Shown here: positions 2,484 to 48,957 of the stretch, piece by piece | How the letters are laid out: each line of letters starts with the position of its first letter | How positions within the stretch are numbered: the first letter of the stretch is position 1 | Assembly: GCA_947305255.1 (NCBI GenBank) | Contig: CAMZDE010000002.1 | Span: forward strand, 1 to 48,963 | DNA length: 48,963 bases | Direction of reading: 5' to 3' | DNA from: an uncultured Alphaproteobacteria bacterium | GTDB taxonomy: Bacteria > Pseudomonadota > Alphaproteobacteria > Rs-D84 | The notes under the pieces: generated by a model | The model's database searches: none | Told to the model about the DNA's origin: nothing | The model's input: the letters and a program-made list of their open reading frames with translations, nothing else | Translations under genes and position numbers: made by a program

Positions 2484-2559
2484 GGGGTTGTAGCTCAGTT
2501 GGTAGAGCACTTGCATGGCATGCAAGGGGTCGTCAGTTCGAGTCTGATCAGCTCCACCA
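2484..2559 (+). tRNA. tRNA-Ala (anticodon GGC)
   Basis: The cloverleaf folds by hand: acceptor GGGGTTG/CAGCTCC with G3:U70, anticodon loop ATGGCAT, T-loop TTCGAGT, encoded CCA. Confidence 0.9.
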
Positions 2560-2703
2560 CGAATTTTCACCGAAGCGTTAGCGAGGACTGAAAATTCAGT
2601 GCCGCGCCGTAGCAGGTCAATTTCTTGAAAAATGTTTCGTTTTTTAAGAACAGCGAAGGCGGGTCAAAAGCAAAAAGACAAAGAAAATAGTGCGTAAAAG
2701 TTT

Positions 2704-2781
2704 GGCGGGCGTAGCTCAGTTGGTTAGAGCGTTGGTTTGTGGTACCAAATGTCGCCAGTTCGAATCTGGTCGCCCGCCCCA
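2704..2781 (+). tRNA. tRNA-His (anticodon GTG) with encoded G-1
   Basis: Acceptor GCGGGCG/CGCCCGC preceded by an extra G opposite discriminator C73. Anticodon loop TTGTGGT, T-arm GCCAG-TTCGAAT-CTGGT, encoded CCA. Confidence 0.88.
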
Positions 2782-2789
2782 TTAAATTA

Positions 2790-2816
2790 AAAAATGCCCG
2801 AACGGGCATTTTTTAA
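2790..2816 (+). terminator. Intrinsic terminator after the tRNA-Ala/His pair
   Basis: ATGCCCG-aa-CGGGCAT stem followed by TTTTTT. Confidence 0.7.
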
Positions 2817-2850
2817 TTTAACTGAGACAGAATGTCTCGGATTCGAACTG

Positions 2851-2967
2851 GCCAGTTCGACAAAATAGCAGTTGAGAACGAGTGAAACGCAGTTCGAAAC
2901 GTTGCGATTTGGAAAGGGGCCCACGAACGCAGTGAAGTGGGAATATACAATCTGGTCGCCCGCCCCA
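2851..2967. repeat. T-arm-bracketed module H1 (split copy of the tRNA-His T-arm and 3' end around an ~88-nt GC-rich insert)
   Basis: GCCAGTTCGA (identical to 2754-2763 of tRNA-His), then the insert, then AATCTGGTCGCCCGCCCCA (2949-2967, a 19/19 match to tRNA-His 2763-2781). Confidence 0.6.
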
Positions 2968-3041
2968 TAAAATTCAACTCCACCAAAACGGTGGGGTTAA
3001 ATTTTATCAAGACGTGCGACCTGATTCTAGAAATGGTGGAC

Positions 3042-3138
3042 CGCCAGTTCGACCCGCAGGCGAGAGGCAGACGGAAGTATGCCGGTGAGCAAAGCGAACG
3101 AGCCAAGGGAGTGGAGCATAGCGAAACAATCTGGTCGC
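3042..3138. repeat. T-arm-bracketed module H2 (second split tRNA-His T-arm copy; its insert shares a core with the tRNA-Lys locus)
   Basis: CGCCAGTTCGA, then CCGCAGGCGAGAGGCAGACG...GCAAAGCGAACGAGCCAAGGGAG..., then AATCTGGTCGC. The insert core recurs at 26693-26755. Confidence 0.6.
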
Positions 3139-3230
3139 TGGGTGAACCATCTGTTTAGGTCTATTTTTTTATTGAAAACCGGTGATTTTATGCTATTTTG
3201 TCGATGCTAGATTAAATCAAAGGATGAAAA

Positions 3231-3737
3231 ATGGCTAATATACCAAATACAGAATACATTACTGTGACCAATGCCGGCGTTTTTATCGGTGAAAAACCTG
3301 CGACACATTATCGCGGTCAAGAATTGTTTGCACCGAAGGCACTGGTTGAACATTTCAAAGCAATACAAGCCAGATATCCAAATATCGCAGAGTTGCGTAT
3401 GCTGTCATCTGAAACAGACGGGGAATCTTATAAATCAGGCAACCCTGTGGCAAAACATGGGCCAAATATGTGGTGCTGTGTTGAATTTTTTGACGGCGTT
3501 GTATCCCCATGGGTGTTAACAGGAAAAAATTCAGACAAAGATTTCACAGCAAGACGTGTGCCGTGCCACTGTTTGGCGACATTCCGCAACAGTGATCCGT
3601 GTCTTCAACATATATTGGGGCCGTACAAAGACGCTATTATAAAAGTGAATTTACAAAATATGGCCGGAAAATCGTTTGAATTAAACGGCTATAAAATAAC
3701 GATTGAAAAAATGACACAGCCACAAAATGAAAGATAA
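3231..3737 (+). CDS. Hypothetical protein (168 aa, Cys-containing, no recognised domain)
   Basis: Clean ORF with GGA-rich RBS context (aaaggatgaaaaATG) and its own terminator. No motif recognised. Confidence 0.55.
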   Translation: MANIPNTEYITVTNAGVFIGEKPATHYRGQELFAPKALVEHFKAIQARYPNIAELRMLSSETDGESYKSGNPVAKHGPNMWCCVEFFDGVVSPWVLTGKNSDKDFTARRVPCHCLATFRNSDPCLQHILGPYKDAIIKVNLQNMAGKSFELNGYKITIEKMTQPQNER

Positions 3738-3741
3738 AAAT

Positions 3742-3772
3742 CCGGTCAATATGACCGGTTTTTTATTTTTTT
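3742..3772 (+). terminator. Intrinsic terminator
   Basis: CCGGTCA-ata-TGACCGG followed by a long T-run. Confidence 0.7.
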
Positions 3773-3848
3773 AGCCATGGGATACCGGATTCGAACTCAT
3801 AAAAATTTTCCATTTGCATCGATTAAAGATTTTTGATAATATAACCAT

Positions 3849-26422: not shown

Positions 26423-26498
26423 GGAGACATAGCTCAGTTGGTAGAGCAAATGACTTTTAATCATTGGGTCCAGGGTTCGAATCCCTGTGTCTCCACCA
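26423..26498 (+). tRNA. tRNA-Lys (anticodon TTT)
   Basis: Acceptor GGAGACA/TGTCTCC, anticodon loop CTTTTAA, T-arm CAGGG-TTCGAAT-CCCTG, encoded CCA. Confidence 0.9.
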
Positions 26499-26540
26499 AA
26501 AATTTATCCCCCGTGAAAACGGGGGATAAATTTTTGGTGG
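26493..26540 (+). other. 20-bp perfect hairpin that includes the last 6 nt (CCACCA) of tRNA-Lys
   Basis: CCACCAAAAATTTATCCCCC-gtgaaaac-GGGGGATAAATTTTTGGTGG. Confidence 0.7.
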
Positions 26541-26577
26541 ACATGGTTTGATTTGAATGCGTCGCAACAAGGTTGCC

Positions 26578-26820
26578 AAGGGTTCGACAACAAGTAGATT
26601 TTGCAAGTAAATCGTGGCAAAATCGTCACGGTTGCCCCGCAGCCGGCACTTTGTGCCGTGCGAGGGAATCCCTGTTCGAACCCGAAGAAAGGGTTCGACC
26701 CGCAGGCGAAAGGCAGACGTTCGTCGGCCGGTTCGCAAAGCGAATGAACCAAGGGGAATGAAGCGAAGCAAAATCGTCACGGTTGCCCCGCAGGTACAAA
26801 GTGTCGAGAAAATCCCTGTG
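26578..26820. repeat. T-arm-bracketed modules at tRNA-Lys (L0/L1) with a 151-nt tandem periodicity
   Basis: AGGGTTCGAC...insert...AATCCCTGT occurs twice. The 25-mer CAAAATCGTCACGGTTGCCCCGCAG is present at 26618-26642 and 26769-26793. The core GTTCGACCCGCAGGCGAAAGGCAGACG is shared with 3048-3072. Confidence 0.6.
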
Positions 26821-26849: not shown

Positions 26850-27107
26850 TTATTTTTTATCTTTGTCTTCGCCAGTGTCGTCGCTGGTCACAAATTTAAA
26901 GAAATCTTGTGGTTTTGCCCCAGTTGCGGCCAATATTTTCGCGATGCTGTTCGTTGACGGCCATCGTGGTTGTCCAAATACAGTCTTACGTTTGCTTTTG
27001 TTAAAGGTTGTCGGATCTAACCCGCTAAGTTTTGCCAATCCAGAGCAAGACATTCCGTGTTCACGAGCAAATAATTCAATCGCATGCCATATTTGATGAT
27101 GTGTCAT
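26850..27107 (-). CDS. HTH DNA-binding protein, equivalent to only the N-terminal domain of phage/S24-type repressors
   Basis: HQIWHAIELFAREHGMSCSGLAKLSGLDPTTFNKSKRKT..PRWPSTNSIAKIL matches the HTH domain that precedes the S24 peptidase domain in alphaproteobacterial repressors. Here it is followed only by an acidic tail. RBS AGGGGGA. Confidence 0.65.
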   Translation of the reverse strand: MTHHQIWHAIELFAREHGMSCSGLAKLSGLDPTTFNKSKRKTVFGQPRWPSTNSIAKILAATGAKPQDFFKFVTSDDTGEDKDKK

Positions 27108-27369
27108 AATGTTTTCCCCCCTATTGTTTTGTTTTTAGTTTGGTTAGTTTTTACTTCGTTTGGGTATATTATCAAATAAAGAGAAAAAAATCAATTAAAA
27201 CAACCATAATAAGAAAAGAAACCTATTGTGAAAAATAGTGTTTACTGTTGTGATGGCAGATTTGTGCGGTGTTTTTATCTTTAAAGCTATATAGAAAGAA
27301 AATATTAAAACTAATAAAAATACCCTAAAATTCGATTCGAATTAATAATCCCAGAATCAAAAGATTTTG

Positions 27370-27744
27370 TTATCTTATGCGTTTGATTTCCATACCGACA
27401 ACGTGTTCACGGTTCAATTCTTCGCGCGATACAAATTTGGTAATAATGTTCATCAATTCATCAATGTTTTGAAATCCAGAACGCTTAATATCGATTTTTT
27501 TAAACAAATTCTCAAAATCAGGCGCAACATGCATATTTAAAACTTCGCAGATAATATATTCGTCTGTGTTTTCAGCATCAAACAGTAAAAATTTGTCGCC
27601 AATTTTAACTTTTTTGCGTTTGTCGTCGTACGCGCGTAATTCAATGTCTTTTTGCCCAGATTTTATCATTTCAAAATATTTGTGCCGAACACTCATAGTG
27701 AACTGATACGTAATGTCAGATTGAATGTTTTTATCTTTTGTCAT
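27370..27744 (-). CDS. ASCH (PUA-like) domain protein
   Basis: 124 aa. KYFEMIKSGQKDIELRAYDDKRKKVKIGDKFLLF is the typical ASCH N-terminal beta-barrel pattern. Confidence 0.7.
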   Translation of the reverse strand: MTKDKNIQSDITYQFTMSVRHKYFEMIKSGQKDIELRAYDDKRKKVKIGDKFLLFDAENTDEYIICEVLNMHVAPDFENLFKKIDIKRSGFQNIDELMNIITKFVSREELNREHVVGMEIKRIR

Positions 27745-41806: not shown

Positions 41807-41854
41807 TCGTGGCTCGGGCAACTGGACTCGAACCAGTGACATACGGATTAACAG
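41807..41854 (-). repeat. att direct repeat: displaced 3' half of tRNA-Asn (anticodon loop to CCA plus 3 nt), with its own terminator at 41783-41806
   Basis: 48/48 identity with 48879-48926. Confidence 0.85.
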
Positions 41855-42182
41855 CAACGGCCAGATAATAAAATATAAGACACCACAACAAAATTTAACA
41901 CTTCAATCAACAGGTTATGTTTTATCAAATTTTAACAATTTTTATAAATTATTATTTGATAAATCCCTCTGGTGTCCCACAGAAATAGTTTATTCTTTGT
42001 GTTAGTCCTTTGGTTCTTGTTTTGTGATGCCAAACGGATTGTTGGGCATCGGTTCGTTTCCTTGATTAAAATTATACATCCATTGTTTTATAAAAACAAC
42101 TTTAAAAAAAGCATTCTTTTTTGTGGCACCAGTTTTTTAATCTGACATCTATGGGGGGTGGGGGAACACCACAGAAACAAGT

Positions 42183-43901
42183 TTATACTTGAATGAAAAA
42201 TGTGATATTAAAACTGTCTATGCGTTCAGGATATGATGAAAATTCTTTGTTTGTGAATTCAAAATGGTCATTGTTGTATTTATTTTTGGGTGTAAATTGA
42301 ATATCTGACGGTGACAAGTGTGTTGCACCAGTCAAATATGATGCACGGACACCCCAAGCGGCTTTACTGTCTTTTAAATTGTTAATGATATATTGCATAC
42401 CGATACCATATCTGAAAACTGCTTTGTCATTATTGGAAACATTATGCCCATTTGTAGTAGTGCTACCATCGGCAGATATGTGAAACACACCAAGTGTCCC
42501 GATACCAAATACAGATAATTTTCTGCCAATGTTTATACCAAGATTTGAATATAACAACTCATAATACTCTGTGGCTATTTCAGCAGAATGATGGCTTGTG
42601 TGCAAATTATAAGTTGAATCAAAATTCATTTTGGCTTTTTGTAAAGATAGATAATTGAATTGTGCACCAGCCCCTAAATACAAGTATTTCAATTTGTATG
42701 ACAAGCCCAAATCAAGGTTAAAACCAGCATTTTTTTGTCCAAAACTTACGCCTGCACCCAATAAGATATTTTTTGTTGAGGTCGGATATTTTGAAAATTC
42801 TAATTCTTGGCTTGGATAATAAGTTGTTTCACCCCCATTTATTCTTAAACTTTTTTCTATGTCAAAAAATCCGGCTTTTGAAAATACCAAATCTTGTTTT
42901 TTATCTGGGGACAATTCGCCTGTGGTGTTGCCTGTGACGGCTTTGCCATTAACAGATATTTCAACACCAGGATTGCGCACCTTAAAGGCACTGAAATCAA
43001 TCTTGCCGGGCAATTTTTCCATATTAAACATATATTCTGATTCTGAATATTTAGAAAAAGATACTGTTCGTGTAATATCAACGGCTTCCGAATTCTTTGC
43101 GGTTATCTTTTGTTCTATGCCAAATTGTGCATTAAAATTAACAGGTTCTTTACCATAATCCACGTCGTTAATAAAGATTCTGGAATCACCCAAAGACGTT
43201 CGAATTTTTATGTTCTTTGTCCCACGTTTAAGTGTTTTTGATATTTTACCATTCGTTGGGACAATCAAAGTTTCATTGACGTCAGAATAATTTTCTTTGG
43301 TTATTTCAAGTGTGTGTTTTCCATTGCAAACATTGCCAAATTTAATTGGGGATTCGCCTTGATATTTTCCATTGTCTATCGTCACAAATGCTTTTGCTGG
43401 TGTTGTTATAATTTCAACAGGTGCACCTTTGCAGGTTGTGTCGCCAACACTTTCATTGAAAACAACCGTTAAAGCAGATTTTGGCAATTTTTCCAATCTT
43501 TGTTTTTCTTGTTTGAATTCTTTTTGTGAATACCTATACTGAACACAACCAACCCAACCACCAGATTCTTTGCTAACGTCACTTTTTTGGCGTTCAAGAC
43601 CTTTTAATGAAATTGTCCCAATAGACCTTTCATAAGAACGAGTTGTGCCTGCACTGGTGGTTGTATCAGAATAAAATTCAGATTGCACATTCAATGCTGT
43701 GCCAAATAAACGACCGATTTGATTATCTATGTCACGTTCTGCTTTGTTTGCGGCATCTGCTGCGCTGGTTTCTGAATATGATTTCGCAACCAAATATTTA
43801 TATGTCGCATCATCTGGTGGTGTGGTTGTTGCCCAATCGCACCCTGCAAACGAATTACCAGATAAAAAGATGCCCAAACAAAATATAGCAGAACGTTTCA
43901 T
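42183..43901 (-). CDS. Lipoprotein with PEGA-like repeats and a C-terminal beta-barrel-like domain
   Basis: Lipobox SFAGC at residue 20. Three segments resemble PEGA domains (e.g. AKAFVTIDNGKYQGESPIKFGNVCNGKHTLEITKENY). The C-terminal ~200 aa have alternating G/Y/hydrophobic strands. Confidence 0.6.
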   Translation of the reverse strand: MKRSAIFCLGIFLSGNSFAGCDWATTTPPDDATYKYLVAKSYSETSAADAANKAERDIDNQIGRLFGTALNVQSEFYSDTTTSAGTTRSYERSIGTISLKGLERQKSDVSKESGGWVGCVQYRYSQKEFKQEKQRLEKLPKSALTVVFNESVGDTTCKGAPVEIITTPAKAFVTIDNGKYQGESPIKFGNVCNGKHTLEITKENYSDVNETLIVPTNGKISKTLKRGTKNIKIRTSLGDSRIFINDVDYGKEPVNFNAQFGIEQKITAKNSEAVDITRTVSFSKYSESEYMFNMEKLPGKIDFSAFKVRNPGVEISVNGKAVTGNTTGELSPDKKQDLVFSKAGFFDIEKSLRINGGETTYYPSQELEFSKYPTSTKNILLGAGVSFGQKNAGFNLDLGLSYKLKYLYLGAGAQFNYLSLQKAKMNFDSTYNLHTSHHSAEIATEYYELLYSNLGINIGRKLSVFGIGTLGVFHISADGSTTTNGHNVSNNDKAVFRYGIGMQYIINNLKDSKAAWGVRASYLTGATHLSPSDIQFTPKNKYNNDHFEFTNKEFSSYPERIDSFNITFFIQV

Positions 43902-43921
43902 AATTGCCCCCCTGATGCGTT

Positions 43922-44521
43922 TTATTCGTTCACAATGGTATATTGTTCATTTACCATTAAATCCCATTGCTGGGCGGCTTTTTTCTTTAAATCTTCGGAA
44001 ATGCCTTTGTTCTTATTTAATGTGCGTTCTATCGCTTGTTTAAGGTCGCTTTCGCTTATTTTTACACGTGCATATATTGAATAAAACATTTCTTTGTCTT
44101 CTTCGGCATTAACAGTGCTTAAAACCTTTTCCCAATAACGGTCGCTAACAATCGCTTTTGACATCAGTGCCTTTGCTGATTCTGTGCTGACAAATTGAAC
44201 CTGGTTAGCATCATAAGACGTGCCTTCTTCGGCATTTTGGAACATATATGTTAAATTTTGGTTTATTGCGCTGGCAATGGAATTTTTTGCATTGTTTTCT
44301 GCTATTCTATACCCCATAGAAACATTTGCCTTTTCAGCAGGAATACGTGCTTGCCCCAAGAAATACAAATCTGAACCTTTCTTGGTTAATGGGGTGCTTT
44401 CTTTTACCCACGATGGACGTGAAGATAAATTGTCACTGCGTTGTATAACTTTATCTGACATACCGCCACCACAGGCAGCCAAAATCAAAGACATAGATGT
44501 TGCAAATACGAATTTTTTCAT
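43922..44521 (-). CDS. Lipoprotein, LPP20-like
   Basis: Lipobox LAAC (MKKFVFATSMSLILAACGG). YFLGQARIP...MGYRIAENNAKNSIASAI resembles the LPP20 family; the N-terminus of the downstream gene has a similar block. Confidence 0.55.
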   Translation of the reverse strand: MKKFVFATSMSLILAACGGGMSDKVIQRSDNLSSRPSWVKESTPLTKKGSDLYFLGQARIPAEKANVSMGYRIAENNAKNSIASAINQNLTYMFQNAEEGTSYDANQVQFVSTESAKALMSKAIVSDRYWEKVLSTVNAEEDKEMFYSIYARVKISESDLKQAIERTLNKNKGISEDLKKKAAQQWDLMVNEQYTIVNE

Positions 44522-45013
44522 AATGTTATCCTTTTGTGTAAAAATGAAGACCGCCCAGAAAGAAAGGGCGGTCGGGAGCTCAAAAATCAGTATGTTATTG
44601 ACTCTGTTGCTTTCGGGTTGCCCCTGTTTTATGACAACAAACTCCCGACCATAAGTCAGGAATTATTACGATGCAAAAACACCGCAATATCAACTTCACG
44701 ATGCTTTCGCACCGAACATACTGGGCTTTTGAAACCCAACCGGTCTTTCTAACCAGTCCTTTATATTTTACAACAAGCAAACAAATTTTTCAACCAGCAA
44801 AGTGATATTTTCCCTTTGGGGATATATTGTGTGTATATAGGGGGTGGGGGTGGCCAGTGAATAGTGGAGTGATTGGTTAATAAAGCATACGGTGTAAAGG
44901 GTTGTATAAAGGGGTGATGTATAGGGTGGTTATATTGCTGTGCTGTGTCCACAGGTTAATGTCCGTCCATCCGTCTTTTTATAAATAAAAAGGACGGACG
45001 GACAGACGTGGGT

Positions 45014-46051
45014 TTAATCGGGGAACATTGACTCGTTCAAATCTTCCAAGTCAATTACCTTTGGTTCTGGCTCGGCAGGGACAGATTCTTGCGCTGGTTC
45101 AGTTTTTAATTGCTTGGCAAGTTCACCAACCGTTGATTTGCTGATGCCAGTTTCTGATTCTATATCCCTGTATGATTTGCCTTGGGACAGCAAATTGCCA
45201 ACCATTTCAAGTTTTTTTGCTTTTTCTGCTTCTCTTTTGGTTTGGTCGGCTGTGTCAGTTACTTTGAATTCCGACCAAGACACAAACCCTTTATCGCCAA
45301 CGGTTTCCAATTGAAAGCCGATAGGTTTAAGAATAGAACCTGCAACATTACGTGATTTTTGATACTTCATAACGAACTTTGCACCATCGGTTACATTGTA
45401 TGATACTGGTTTTTCCAATGATACCACGGCATCCATAATGTCTTGTTTTTTACTGGTTCCACGATTGCCGTGTTCGGGGTCTTTGCCCGAATGGTCAATC
45501 AGCAAAACAGATTTGCCACGACGTTTCAAGTCAATTAACCATCTTTGCATTGGTGTCCAACTTTCTGCTTCGTTTTCCCTGCCAAACGAACACAATGCAG
45601 AAAGGTTATCTATGATTATAAGTTCACAATCACCCAGCAGTGCGGTTATTTGTTCTTGGCCTTTTTCATAACCTATATTTGGCAACGGTTTTTCTGACAG
45701 GTCATTGGATAGAATTTTGAACCTATCAAACGTGTCGGGGTTGCACAAGTCCATTCCAAATCCCAAATTGGTTATTCTGTCTTGGAAATCTTTGCCTGTC
45801 ATTTCCCCGTCAATGTATAATACAGAACGGTTTTTTTTGACGGTGAAATTAAACACATTTTTTCCACTTGCGATGGCCATTCCTAATGTCATTGCAAAAT
45901 ATGTTTTTCCAATACCACGTTGGGCATACAATATGGTCAAGGATTTTTCCTGAATGAACGGATATGCAATCCATTCACGTTCTGGAATTTTCATTTCCAG
46001 CAGGTTACGCAGTGAAACCACTGAATATTGTGGGGTGTTATTGTCTGCCAT
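45014..46051 (-). CDS. AAA_25/RepA-like P-loop ATPase with a C-terminal HTH
   Basis: Walker A AQRGIGKT, Walker B LIIIDNLS, RecA/DnaB-like core, and a C-terminal SYRDIESETGISKSTVGELAK. Confidence 0.78.
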   Translation of the reverse strand: MADNNTPQYSVVSLRNLLEMKIPEREWIAYPFIQEKSLTILYAQRGIGKTYFAMTLGMAIASGKNVFNFTVKKNRSVLYIDGEMTGKDFQDRITNLGFGMDLCNPDTFDRFKILSNDLSEKPLPNIGYEKGQEQITALLGDCELIIIDNLSALCSFGRENEAESWTPMQRWLIDLKRRGKSVLLIDHSGKDPEHGNRGTSKKQDIMDAVVSLEKPVSYNVTDGAKFVMKYQKSRNVAGSILKPIGFQLETVGDKGFVSWSEFKVTDTADQTKREAEKAKKLEMVGNLLSQGKSYRDIESETGISKSTVGELAKQLKTEPAQESVPAEPEPKVIDLEDLNESMFPD

Positions 46052-46197
46052 TTTGCACCCCCTTTGTTACATACCACGTGTTGGATTGCGGGAAATACAA
46101 CTGAACAAGGCCAGAATTAACTTGTAAAATTGGCTGTTCCAGATTATAATCATACGTGAAGCAAGTGGTGCCATTCGTTAATGCGATGGCACCCCAT

Positions 46198-46425
46198 TTA
46201 TTGTTTATCATTGTTCACCCCCTTTGGTTGAGGATTTGATTCCAACCAATCGAAAAACTTGGGAACGTTGATTAACAGTTTGCGACCAAGGGTGCAGACA
46301 GCACCACTGGATACCAAACCATTCGTGTTTCTGAAAAACAGAAGATTACGCAATCCGCCCATTTTGAAAGCGGGATTATTTGCAACGAATTGTTGCGGTG
46401 TTTGAAGCATATTATTGTCAAACAT
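46198..46425 (-). CDS. Excisionase/AlpA-like small DNA-binding protein (tentative)
   Basis: 75 aa. The ...LGRKLLINVPKFFDWLES ending resembles the GR..f....l..WL tail of excisionase-type HTH proteins. Its position is typical for an island. Confidence 0.4.
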   Translation of the reverse strand: MFDNNMLQTPQQFVANNPAFKMGGLRNLLFFRNTNGLVSSGAVCTLGRKLLINVPKFFDWLESNPQPKGVNNDKQ

Positions 46426-46578
46426 ACTTTTACTCCTTATGTTAATTGTTTTTACAGATTTTCATAATCTGTTATTGAACATATAAGGAATAACAAGTTT
46501 GGTTACGATTCCAGACCGATTGTCTGATTTTGCTTTTGTAATCAGCAGAAATCAAGGATTGTTATAAAAAATGTGTTT

Positions 46579-47472
46579 TTACGAATTTTTCCAAAAATCA
46601 CGAATTCGTTTCAGATTATGTTTGTTATTGAAATATGTTATAAACGCATTTATTTGTCTGCGGGACAAACCAAAATCTTTATTCAGGTCAGATTTTATGT
46701 CAGCAGTTCTTGTGTATTGTTTGCCAGATATTTCAAGATGTTCTGCAACAAAATCAAATCCAATATTATCCCTGTTTGCCAATCCACACAAATGCTTGTT
46801 ATGGAATTGAAGCACAGATTTAAATGCGGAAGTGATTGCGAAGTTGTCGCATTTACAAGTGGTTTTTCTAATGCCAAGAATATACGGAACAAGAAAGAAT
46901 ATAACCGCTGTGAAAATTTCATCTGGATATGCACCAAATGCGCTGAAAAAACTTGGTCGCATAAACAGGGCTGTTTCAAATGGAATATAATGCGATGGTT
47001 TGTATGGGTCTTCGGTCTTTCTGGAACTCACGACACGTTGTGCATAAGTGTTAGGGCCAAATTTTATCTTTCTTCTCTCATAGTTTGCATTTTGATGGGC
47101 TCGGGCATTTGCCAAATGTTCGGCAGGGGCCTTTTGTTTGTAAAATTCAATAAAAGCACGTTCCAAATACCAAGGAAATAGATTAACGCATATATTTTGG
47201 TGCTCTTCACTGGGAATATATTTTTCAATTATTTCAAGACCTATTTTTATCAGTTTGTTCAATCTGATTAACTGTGTTTTGGTTATATTGGAATAATCAA
47301 AGTTTGGGAATAAATACCCACCAAGTTTGTTCAATATTTCGGCATAACTGCATTTTTTCCTGGGATACAAATAAGAAAATGTCGGCATCAAATGGGTTTT
47401 GACATTATATCCAACCTGATTTTGAAAATCACTTTTTCTTAATGGTAAAAACTTGAATGGAATGGTGTTCAT
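46579..47472 (-). CDS. Hypothetical island protein (297 aa)
   Basis: Long ORF whose start overlaps the integrase stop (ATGA). No recognised motif. Confidence 0.5.
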   Translation of the reverse strand: MNTIPFKFLPLRKSDFQNQVGYNVKTHLMPTFSYLYPRKKCSYAEILNKLGGYLFPNFDYSNITKTQLIRLNKLIKIGLEIIEKYIPSEEHQNICVNLFPWYLERAFIEFYKQKAPAEHLANARAHQNANYERRKIKFGPNTYAQRVVSSRKTEDPYKPSHYIPFETALFMRPSFFSAFGAYPDEIFTAVIFFLVPYILGIRKTTCKCDNFAITSAFKSVLQFHNKHLCGLANRDNIGFDFVAEHLEISGKQYTRTADIKSDLNKDFGLSRRQINAFITYFNNKHNLKRIRDFWKNS

Positions 47473-48545
47473 TGTTCTGTTTCCCCAAATATTTTGTTGG
47501 CCATTGTTTCCACAATGGTTTGTGAATGTTCATCGGATAGGTGTGCATACCTTTTTGTCATTTGCAAGGTCTTGTGGCCCAAAATAGCGGCAATTTCAGC
47601 CATTGAATAACCGTTCATAGCCAGATACGATGCACAGGTGTGTCGCAAATCGTGAAAATGGAAATTTTCAAGACCAGCATCTGCCATTGCTTTATACCAA
47701 CTGCGCTGGATATCAAATGGCTTGGTGCCATCGTGGCTTGGAAACACATAAACGTCATTTGGTCTGCGGCTGGCATATAATTTATGCAATTCTGCCAGTG
47801 CAGGCCCAGCCAATGGCATATAACGTCTTTCACCATTCTTGGTGTCTTGCAATATTGCACGTCCAGCATTCAAATCAACATCCTGCCATTTTAACGACAT
47901 TATTTCCATTCGTCTGGCCCCTGTGGTTATGCCAATTAACACAGCAGGGTGCAGATAAGGGTTGTTTGCTTTCTTGGTTTCAGCAAGCAAATTTTCACGT
48001 TCTGCATCAGTTAAATAACGCACGCGGCCACGTGGTTCAGATAATTTGGATATCTTGATTACAGGGTTGTTTTCTAACCATTCCAATTCACGCACTGCAT
48101 ATGACAGCATAACAGATAATGCAGCCATATAGCGGTTAATTGTTGCATTGCTTTTTTTCTTTTGCAATCTGGCATCTTTTGATTCTGCGATTTGATTGCG
48201 TGCTTGAATCAGCAAGGATGGTGTCAAACTGGATAAAGCATATTGTCCCAGCACGGATTTCCACATTCTGATATGTCTGATGGTGTCAACAGATGCTTTT
48301 TTAGGGTTGGCCTGCAAATGTTTTTCATACAGGTCAGCCAATTCAGCCACAGTGTGCTTTTGCGATTCTATAACTGAAAAATTCGCACCCTGCAACATTC
48401 TGGCTTCGGTCATCTTGGCCCAAGTTTCAGCAGCGGTCTTGGTTGGGAATGTTTTTGATACTTTGGGATAACCAAATACGCAAACCCTTGCACGATAACT
48501 GACTTTATTTGTTTTCTTTGATGGTCGTTTTTCTATTGTCGCCAT
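47469..48545 (-). CDS. Tyrosine site-specific integrase
   Basis: Start at MATIEKR, behind the RBS AAGGAAAG. Catalytic ARRMEI (R), HDLRHTCAS (HxxR) and LGHKTLQMTKRYAHL (Y). Adjacent to tRNA-Asn. Confidence 0.9.
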   Translation of the reverse strand: MATIEKRPSKKTNKVSYRARVCVFGYPKVSKTFPTKTAAETWAKMTEARMLQGANFSVIESQKHTVAELADLYEKHLQANPKKASVDTIRHIRMWKSVLGQYALSSLTPSLLIQARNQIAESKDARLQKKKSNATINRYMAALSVMLSYAVRELEWLENNPVIKISKLSEPRGRVRYLTDAERENLLAETKKANNPYLHPAVLIGITTGARRMEIMSLKWQDVDLNAGRAILQDTKNGERRYMPLAGPALAELHKLYASRRPNDVYVFPSHDGTKPFDIQRSWYKAMADAGLENFHFHDLRHTCASYLAMNGYSMAEIAAILGHKTLQMTKRYAHLSDEHSQTIVETMANKIFGETEQ

Positions 48546-48878
48546 TTTTTCTTTCCTTTGTGTTTGTCTGACTAACAGGGTCAAACAATGTCTTTCAATT
48601 CTGCTTCGCTTCGTCTTGTTTTTCTGACAATAAGAATCACAATCCGTCTGTCAATATAGTGCAACAACGCAGAATTTCAAGGGTTATTGTGTGTCCCATT
48701 TAATTCTTGGGACACTGGTGGGATTTGGAAAACAAAACTTGCCGCAAATCCGATGGTTTTGTGCGCTGGTTGAATGTGAATTATGTTGTGAATTTTTATA
48801 TTCGTTTATCTGGTGTGTCCCAAATGTGTCCCAAACACATAAATAAAAAAAGCGGGAATCTGCTGAATCCCGCTAAAT

Positions 48879-48926
48879 TCGTGGCTCGGGCAACTGGACT
48901 CGAACCAGTGACATACGGATTAACAG
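48879..48926 (-). repeat. att direct repeat (within the intact tRNA-Asn)
   Basis: 48/48 identity with 41807-41854. Confidence 0.85.
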
Positions 48927-48957
48927 TCCGTTGTTCTACCGACTGAACTATGCCCGA
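48882..48957 (-). tRNA. tRNA-Asn (anticodon GTT)
   Basis: Minus-strand cloverleaf: acceptor TCGGGCA/TGCCCGA, anticodon loop CTGTTAA, T-arm ACTGG-TTCGAGT-CCAGT, discriminator G, CCA. Terminator at 48848-48878. Confidence 0.9.

Follow-up and report, generated by a model that had tools for sequence, protein, structure and literature searches.

tRNA-linked repeats (TLRs) have been known since 1978, when they were first seen 3′ of the Escherichia coli tyrT gene (Egan & Landy 1978; Rudd 1999; summarised in PMC8144298), and have no accepted function or origin. In E. coli, 22 copies without known function are found at ten loci, each locus holding one to five; the defining mark of a TLR is that its 3′-terminal 18–19 bp repeat exactly those of the tRNA or rRNA upstream. 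E. coli TLRs are transcribed by read-through and processed, and a strain without all 22 has been constructed (PMC8144298). The copies include RtT/rttR after tyrT-tyrV (Rfam RF00391), rsX1-4 after serX, and copies downstream of the lys, arg, and pro tRNA genes. The present study concerns units of the same build that follow the tRNA-His and tRNA-Lys genes in a 48,963-nt stretch of DNA (hereafter the window; GC 38%) from an uncultured alphaproteobacterium of the Rs-D84 lineage (GenBank assembly GCA_947305255.1, contig CAMZDE010000002.1, positions 1–48,963). Gut and rumen bacteria of Candidatus Enterousia/Rs-D84 have genomes of ~0.75–1.0 Mb (PMC12306168). By definition and architecture, as judged from sequence, the units are TLRs that form new families rather than members of RF00391, and they are probably trailer RNAs co-transcribed and processed with the tRNA.

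Each unit is composed, in order, of (usually) a terminator, a diverged antisense stretch running from tRNA position 76 back to 49, a spacer, sense positions 49–58, a core, and sense positions 59–76 with CCA (Table 1). The left sense piece holds the T-stem 5′ strand and the first five T-loop nucleotides; the right piece holds AATC, the T-stem 3′ strand, and the acceptor 3′ strand (plus CCA). The spacer is purine-rich and 4–7 nt long, with a small hairpin in its place in type C units. At the tRNA-His locus, positions 49–76 of that tRNA (GCCAGTTCGAATCTGGTCGCCCGCCCCA) are the source for every arm. The units start 59 and 233 nt past tRNA-His and 37 nt past tRNA-Lys, on the same strand as the tRNA. 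An earlier note on this DNA, made from the letters alone, had described two units 3′ of tRNA-His that are bracketed by the halves of its T-arm, and all of their coordinates and sequences were reproduced here, with the split falling exactly between positions 49–58 and 59–76. The complete identity that it reported between the right end of unit 1 and 2763–2781 (19/19, CCA included) was likewise recovered, with 0 matches expected in 100 shuffles. Two of its further observations are real and now have an anatomical meaning. Thus, the palindrome TCGAACTGG/CCAGTTCGA at 2843–2860 is the inner end of the antisense arm abutting the left sense piece, and the reverse T-loop fragment at ~3775–3800 is an orphan, degenerate His-type antisense arm directly 3′ of a bidirectional terminator (3742–3758). 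The core common to unit 2 and the tRNA-Lys locus is present in exactly two window copies (3047–3073 and 26693–26719; 0 by chance), the latter bracketed, as claimed, by the tRNA-Lys sequences GGGTTCGA and AATCCCTGTG. The antisense arm before each unit and the first of the two units at the tRNA-Lys locus, with its type C core, were absent from the earlier note.

Table 1 Mapped features of the tRNA-His and tRNA-Lys loci, with other tRNA genes of the window
Feature	Position	Strand	Description
tRNA-Ala	2484-2559		
tRNA-His(GTG)	2705-2781	+	ARAGORN, Rfam
tRNA-His intrinsic terminator	2782-2839	+	Hairpin ~2791-2816, second small hairpin 2822-2840; GC 0.33
Unit 1 antisense arm remnant	2840-2851	+	GATTCGAACTGG; complement of tRNA positions 61-50
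Unit 1 left sense arm	2852-2860	+	CCAGTTCGA; tRNA positions 50-58; then C
Unit 1 core, type D	2861-2948	+	C + 87-nt insert; kept GAGAACGAG and GGAAAGGGGCCC-hairpin-GGGAATATACA
Unit 1 right sense arm	2949-2967	+	AATCTGGTCGCCCGCCCCA; tRNA positions 58-76 including CCA
Bidirectional terminator	2968-3012	+	TAAAATTCAA-hairpin-TTAAATTTTAT class; hairpin 2976-2998; opens unit 2
Unit 2 antisense arm	3014-3036	+	GTGCGACCTGATTCTAGAAATGG; diverged complement of tRNA positions 70-50
Unit 2 left sense arm	3043-3052	+	GCCAGTTCGA; tRNA positions 49-58, 10/10
Unit 2 core, type A	3053-3127	+	Covariance model match 94.1 bits; pair counts
Unit 2 right arm	3128-3149	+	AATCTGGTCGC (3128-3138) as in tRNA, then diverges (TGGGTGAACCA)
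Orphan degenerate His-type antisense arm	3775-3800	+	CCATGGGATACCGGATTCGAACTCAT; by eye vs complement of tRNA-His 49-76
tRNA-Lys(TTT)	26423-26498	+	Arm source at second locus
Lys unit 1	26535-26674	+	Antisense TGGTGGACATGGTTTGATTTGAATG, spacer hairpin GCAAC-AAG-GTTGC, GGGTTCGA then C, type C core, AATCCCTG
Lys unit 2	26675-26820	+	Antisense TTCGAACCC, gaagaaa, GGGTTCGA then C, A/C hybrid core, AATCCCTGTG
tRNA-Asn(GTT)	48882-48957	-	

Direct sequence comparison revealed the same internal anatomy in the tyrV and serX TLRs of E. coli. The tyrV trailer (RtT, RF00391) reads GGGGAAGGATGAGAAGCTTC-GACC-AAGGTTCGA/C-core-AATCCTTCCCCCACCACCA, where the slash marks the junction with the core, and the serX trailer repeats the series terminator-GGGGGGATGAGAAGCCCC-GACC-GGGGTTCGA/C-core-AATCCCCCCCTCACCGCCA. 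Their parts follow one another just as in the units, namely (terminator)-antisense arm with GATGAGAA-GAC-T-stem 5′ strand and TTCGA/C-core-AATC and tRNA 3′ end. The agreement extends to details, such as TC to GA in the antisense T-loop (GGATGAGAA), the GAC spacer, and the C after TTCGA, and RtT and the Enterousia units have in common the motifs GGATGAGAAC, GAC spacer, TTCGAC, CCGCAGG, GCGAAGCG, and AAGGG-GAAGCG-AGCG-AATCC. Between the E. coli RtT unit and an Enterousia tRNA-Arg type A unit, 91 positions are identical (z = 6.7), and none of 300 shuffles was as good. Since the tyrV and serX TLRs possess the same anatomy, the units are to be placed in the TLR class and not among prophage attachment (att) scars.

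The features by which TLRs were defined are also present. In the window and at all related loci, the units lie immediately 3′ of a tRNA and in the same orientation, as E. coli TLRs do; unit 1 (19/19) and most related copies (18/18 nt) retain the tRNA 3′ end including CCA; and one to four tandem units per locus, within the one to five of E. coli, occur at several tRNA loci per genome. Partner tRNAs for Ser, Arg, Pro, and Lys are common to both groups. The differences are that at least four to six core families exist here versus one per E. coli locus, and that the host belongs to the Alphaproteobacteria, its genome measuring ~0.75–1.0 Mb. The split T-arm and the antisense arm seem undescribed for E. 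coli TLRs, for which the literature we found gives the 18–19-bp 3′ identity only. Two other groups of E. coli RNAs invite comparison. The rrA/rrB/rrF repeats are situated between terminators T1 and T2 (of rrnA, rrnB, and rrnD) and end with an 18-bp copy of the upstream stable RNA, but their arms derive from 5S rRNA and not from a tRNA T-arm; a full antisense arm was looked for in the 5S-linked TLRs and was not established. Their RNAs, RrA/B/F, bind Hfq and CsrA through GGA motifs. 3′ETS-leuZ is likewise a small RNA, which tRNA-maturing RNases release from a tRNA operon’s 3′ trailer (PMC8144298), but it has no tRNA 3′-end copy, no fold-back arm, and no repeat family.

As a separate observation, the type A unit at 3181–3377 (- strand) of L020 (the labels L001–L123 denote the loci compared) gave sub-threshold Rfam matches to the small RNA families AbsR28 (Acinetobacter, E = 0.027) and BSnc120 (Brucella, E = 0.07); these families may be TLR-like, or the matches may be due to the terminator. 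We would also note that the tyrT-tyrV-rttR TLR region of E. coli is reported to show raised coverage in exonuclease-resistant ‘mobilome’ DNA under several stresses (preprint 10.1101/2024.07.17.603846).

The antisense arm deserves particular attention. It is imperfect, and more diverged than the sense arms, and often still starts with TGG, the complement of CCA. Its score in unit 1 gave p = 0 in 200 shuffles, and in unit 2 it forms a duplex of −15.1 kcal/mol with its own right arm, of which just 11 nt are still identical to tRNA-His; the latter arm appears to have been disrupted by a cassette carrying a 168-aa open reading frame (ORF168). Across loci, the antisense arm is significant 40–57 nt 3′ of unit-bearing tRNAs, and none was detected after tRNA-Ala, after tRNA-Thr, or on the element side of tRNA-Asn. 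It pairs with its own right arm better than with foreign ones (−14.1 vs −9.9 kcal/mol). All arms match the local tRNA, including odd loops, namely TCCGA in one tRNA-Met, TTCGAAC in tRNA-Pro(CGG), and G59 in another tRNA-Met. In L042, the tRNA-His T-arm carries four substitutions, each of which reappears in the two sense arms and the antisense arm. When whole units are folded by minimum free energy, the two sense pieces are both bound by the antisense arm and the core branches from one long tRNA-derived helix, and on the + strand it is predicted to leave this helix exactly at T-loop 58/59. The terminator that opens the unit belongs, at most loci, to a recurrent class (TAAAATTCAA-GC hairpin-TTAATTTTAT), and the TAAAATTCAA-hairpin-TTAAATTTTAT class found before unit 2 also lies ahead of units in L020, L042, and L044–L047.

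The same parts could be read as an RNA that mimics the top half of a tRNA (T-arm, acceptor stem, and CCA) and serves toxins or enzymes that bind tRNA as a decoy or substrate, with the core placed after T-loop position 58, where insertion is tolerated. It would fit this reading that the split falls exactly past the five-nucleotide T-loop motif UUCGA, that the sense arms are identical to the tRNA with the above loop variants included, and that the right arm ends in CCA. However, the best-conserved complementarity is that of the antisense arm with the T-stem 3′ and acceptor 3′ strands, often with CCA opposite UGG, and both the minimum-free-energy folds and the Rfam RtT consensus structure, in which the antisense arm pairs with the 3′ repeat, choose the antisense:sense helix. 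With this pairing the T-stem could not form, although a T-stem and acceptor stem with a free NCCA can be drawn on paper as an alternative fold. Mimicry of this kind is therefore regarded as very unlikely. It had been suggested earlier that the units might be a structured RNA that mimics a T-arm; the evidence supports the structured RNA but does not extend to the mimicry.

Returning to the units as TLRs, their cores are structured and fall into several families. At least four of these, A (with the variant A2), C, D, and E, use the 58/59 junction or one near it. The type C core reads AGTAGATT...AAATCGTCACGGTTGCCCCGCAGG-hairpin-GAGGGA. Type D (GAGAACGAG...GGAAAGGGGCCC-hairpin-GGGAATATACA) recurs at tRNA-His in L044, L092, L104, L097, and L106, with a related copy at tRNA-Met in L025, and its 3′ hairpin varies, as seen by eye, on both strands (CCCAC/GTGGG, CCCAAC/GTTGGG, and CCCATC/GATGGG). 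Type B is longer; its antisense arm is usually fused directly to the core, and the tRNA sequence resumes inside the T-stem 3′ strand. Core GC ranges from 47 to 60%, like that of tRNAs, compared with 38% for the window.

The structure of type A is the best characterized. It comprises four helices, namely P1 (NCC:GGN), Pa, P2 (a hairpin capped by a GNRA-type loop), and P3 (a hairpin that varies); in unit 2 of tRNA-His these are CCC:GGG, GGCGAG:CGAGCC, a hairpin with a GGAA loop, and the P3 hairpin, followed by a GA-rich 3′ domain. The core of Lys unit 2 joins the 5′ part of type A to the 3′ half of type C and still scores 81.2 bits with the covariance model. When 31 copies were aligned with MAFFT, changes on both sides were seen in three pairs, and no slid control did as well as the structure. 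A covariance model search returned 28 type A copies in 81 sources, including the diverged A2. In the alignment fitted to this model, which leans towards the structure because of that fitting, 10 of the 19 pairs change on both sides, 90.8% of the cells are paired versus 23–45% with slid partners, and the covariation score is 0.363 vs 0.115 (exceeded by 0/500 shuffles). Compensatory versions of Pa are also evident by eye (GGCGAG:CGAGCC, GCAAAA:TTTTGC, GTAAAA:TTTTAC, GCACAA:TTGTGC, and GGGCAA:TTGCCC). GNRA-type loops and tandem G.A pairs occur on the + strand only. At tRNA-His, the type A core is 90–96% identical between species, compared with 80–83% for frr and 87–97% for tRNA-His; the core is conserved as strongly as the tRNA itself.

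An exact 23-mer spanning the junction and core start was found at 20 loci. A junction-free 19-mer returned 33 true copies, all from gut or rumen Alphaproteobacteria and all in tRNA trailers, together with nine chance matches in GC-rich phyla that have nothing alike beyond the 19-mer. The partner tRNAs are His, Lys, Arg(ACG), Pro(UGG), Pro(CGG), Ser(CGA), Ser(UGA), Ser(GGA), and two Met species, with one tRNA-Ala case. Genomes carry several such loci, with one to four units per locus elsewhere and two at each of the two window loci. The earlier note had proposed such a scan, and the core indeed recurs at other tRNAs, always with that tRNA’s own T-arm halves. It had also allowed that the core might occur only at the two window loci, that the units might be leftovers of one large prophage, and that no structure might be conserved. 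None of this holds: at least ten tRNA species in dozens of genomes carry the core, related strains gain and lose single units, and the core structure is conserved. A loosened automatic unit finder was used for rough counts only; it gave false positives because TTCGAA is palindromic.

The gain and loss of units is best seen at tRNA-His, for which 80 frr-orthologous loci were compared. This locus is polymorphic, being either empty or occupied by between one and four units, drawn from types A, A2, B, D, and E; in L050, L060, L063, L072, and L087 the tRNA is followed by its terminator and the next gene, with no antisense arm. Direct repeats of the tRNA 3′ end plus terminator, identical over up to 55 bp in L020, may allow units to multiply, vanish, and recombine, and at serX a whole unit is tandemly repeated.

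Such patchiness would also be expected if the cores were miniature non-autonomous elements that insert 3′ of the T-loop TTCGA, driven by an IS200/IS605-like system or a homing endonuclease, perhaps with a guide-like right arm. IS200/IS605 palindrome-associated transposable elements (PATEs) with omega-RNA guides are small, carry internal hairpins without terminal inverted repeats, and sit in fixed orientation 3′ of a T-rich motif. The units resemble them in being small and hairpin-bearing, without terminal inverted repeats, in fixed orientation, and with a right flank that can be read as a guide. Furthermore, three unrelated families (A, C, and D) share one junction (TTCGA/C...A/ATC) and one orientation, presence/absence and differing core types are seen at one orthologous locus, hybrid, truncated, and nested copies occur, and core hairpins lie near the right ends (in type A also ~15 nt from the left end). 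The sole candidate engine, a 79-aa GIY-YIG nuclease encoded by cassettes in or beside units at four loci, is sporadic.

Several observations argue against insertion. First, no empty target was found: among 178 tRNA contexts, none has an uninterrupted extra sense copy of positions 51–70 beside a unit-bearing tRNA, and contiguous tRNA copies are limited to the classical cases of the tRNA-Asn island and tRNA-Ala partial duplications. The proposal of an element inserting into T-loop targets, made in advance of this work, is for this reason unsupported as it was worded. Second, the core never occurs at ordinary TTCGA sites (33/33 true 19-mer matches are in tRNA trailers), unlike PATEs, and the antisense arm is left unaccounted for; terminator, antisense arm, and spacer move along with the core. 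Third, units of types B and E have other junctions. Fourth, IS200-type TnpA was absent from ~0.9 Mb of loci, a limited sample searched with an IS200 TnpA query, and type A and type C cores are absent from the viral contigs scanned. A guide matching the intact neighbouring tRNA gene would, in addition, be self-targeting. The marks of miniature inverted-repeat transposable elements (MITEs) and IS200/IS605-type PATEs, namely empty and filled targets, many motif sites, and an autonomous partner, were not those found here, and an origin by insertion is considered unlikely.

Repeats of a tRNA 3′ end are the classical signature of integrative elements, and real islands do use these tRNAs, so that the units might be taken for decayed att sites. 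The window itself offers a contrast. A classical island occupies 41810–48957 (- strand) at tRNA-Asn(GTT), with a direct repeat (41810–41856) that covers 45 contiguous bp, from the anticodon loop through CCA, a tyrosine integrase (47469–48584) that adjoins repeated TGGGACAC motifs, and a cargo including an AAA-ATPase and a PEGA-domain protein. Like the units, its att repeat is a direct repeat of a tRNA 3′ segment downstream of the intact tRNA; unlike them, it is contiguous and kilobases away, has its integrase beside the tRNA, and lacks core, antisense arm, and tandem units. The difference from classical att scars that the earlier note had pointed out is borne out by this repeat. In the units, instead of a contiguous tRNA 3′ copy flanking an integrase element, the copy is split by a conserved, covarying core, the same anatomy is present in E. 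coli and an alphaproteobacterium, no integrase is linked, and viral contigs lack the cores. Decay from att sites is thus hardly credible, and the idea of rearranged integrative-element remnants was rejected. Contiguous tRNA-end repeats of the classical kind were also seen in L109 and L118, which carry tandem 77-nt partial copies of tRNA-Ala, from anticodon stem to CCA, without a core.

The right arms of the units are used in addition by islands and gene cassettes as secondary sites of attachment. In L006 (4387–5958), a 5.7-kb island with a large serine recombinase lies between the CCA of tRNA-Arg and the terminator, upstream of a type A unit; cassettes are located in or beside the right arm in L005 and in L038, the latter of small genes that are likely a toxin-antitoxin pair. 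When the open reading frames of 33 loci were clustered for linkage to recombinases or transposases, only syntenic housekeeping genes and sporadic integrases emerged. The GIY-YIG nuclease frames (79 aa; Pfam PF01541) are found in cassettes closed by a CCGTCT...AGACGG stem in L056, L079, and L122 (tRNA-His/Ala trailers) and in L023 (4890–5317). In three loci the cassette starts directly after a tRNA-type CCA; in L056 and L079 it takes the place of the 5′ part of the first unit, and in L023 it sits between a copy of nt 1–35 of tRNA-Pro(CGG) and the intact tRNA. The nuclease could be a mobility factor.

These insertions raise the question of whether the units act as DNA, either as recombination sites that fold as single strands or cruciforms, or as spare att ‘landing pads’ at which integrases capture cassettes. 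Islands and cassettes in or beside right arms (L006, L005, L038, and ORF168 in the window) are consistent with this, as is a fold that unites a duplex copy of tRNA gene positions 49–76. However, no recombinase is consistently linked to the units, cassette junctions vary case by case, and the conservation of the core sequence is far above the needs of known folded att sites. RNA would account at least equally well for the GNRA loops and tandem G.A pairs, and the E. coli TLRs are transcribed and processed (PMC8144298). A role at the DNA level is accordingly held to be quite unlikely.

For TLRs acting as RNA, the course of events can be sketched by analogy with E. coli RtT and RrA/B/F. A leaky first terminator would be read through, so that the unit is transcribed with the tRNA, and the unit would then be cut out as a discrete small RNA. 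The tRNA 3′-end copy in the terminal helix would act as a processing signal for the tRNA 3′-end maturation machinery, and the conserved core would be the functional part. Type A cores are present in contigs of three RNA-labelled runs at about the depth of the tRNA-His contigs, where the evidence is from contigs only and DNA carry-over is possible.

We would note a number of points that weigh against the units being processed trailer RNAs of the TLR class. For the window organism, RNA evidence is limited to contigs of RNA-labelled runs that may contain DNA; two raw-read runs of 2026 had no reads. A good intrinsic terminator lies ahead of each unit, and no convincing promoter was found before the units, where just weak consensus matches that overlap the terminators occur. 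The tRNA-His locus is empty in several species and E. coli is viable without its 22 TLRs, so any function would be dispensable. High conservation with patchy presence could reflect recent spread rather than purifying selection. The antisense arm is nearly decayed in several copies, and the asymmetry of G.U over A.C mismatches is just 26:13 (p = 0.05), from non-independent data points. Rfam, in both gathering and E-value modes, gave nothing for the units in the window or at 18 loci. The RtT covariance model did align full-length with the tRNA-Arg unit of L020, but at 15.3 bits (E = 1.6) against a gathering threshold of 45; sequence membership of RF00391 is therefore lacking, and the match is one of architecture and motifs. 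Finally, mini-hairpins of the GCGAAGC type are very stable in single-stranded DNA too, so a structure at the DNA level is possible.

Other candidates were tried and rejected. A hammerhead-like reading of CAGAUGAG-stem-GA has the wrong U4 and A14 and a third junction strand of more than 20 nt, and the motif is missing in many copies. A retroviral-style primer-binding site, as the 18-nt 3′ piece and position 58 might suggest, was dismissed given the presence of sense and antisense tRNA pieces on a single strand, the lack of any observed reverse transcriptase, and the same boundary in tRNA-Ser units. A riboswitch or attenuator does not suit the unrelated downstream genes, integron attC sites were discarded for want of GTTRRRY/RYYYAAC boxes, and the att arms of the L006 island are unrelated, which removes an att site of a large serine recombinase.

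Some features in the vicinity of the units were recorded in passing. ORF168 (3231–3737), which has no Pfam match, follows unit 2 of tRNA-His, and a helix-turn-helix (Cro/C1-type) gene and an ASCH-domain gene (26850–27744) follow the tRNA-Lys units. A small hairpin element, GAATTTTCACCGAAGCG...TGAAAATTC, is found after tRNA-Ala (window 2561–2600) and recurs nested in the acceptor part of the right arm of units in L001, L016, and L021. A second trailer hairpin, TCCGTCTTTGCCGATGGCAAAGCC, recurs immediately 3′ of CCA at several loci.

How the tRNA-matched segments came to fit their hosts so closely invites a tentative and rather doubtful proposal, namely that the 28-nt antisense and the split 10 + 18-nt sense segments were written from the resident tRNA or its gene by a templated mechanism, within an ancient RNA gene family of Alpha- and Gammaproteobacteria. 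If true, templated writing would represent a new kind of self-retargeting, tRNA-anchored mobile RNA module, as opposed to duplications kept by gene conversion.

The identification of the units as TLRs has consequences for annotation, in that they are not to be called prophage scars or pseudo-tRNAs. It extends the class beyond the enterobacteria and shows that a single precise build is kept from one proteobacterial class to another, in which a fold-back of positions 49–76 of the tRNA is split at 58/59 by a structured core. TLRs have persisted and diversified into several core families in genomes of less than 1 Mb that are ~90% coding, where useless DNA is normally lost. With hundreds of species, Enterousia offers empty, single-unit, and multi-unit loci and many compensatory changes, which are missing in E. 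coli, and thereby provides comparative material for the structure, origin, and function of TLRs.

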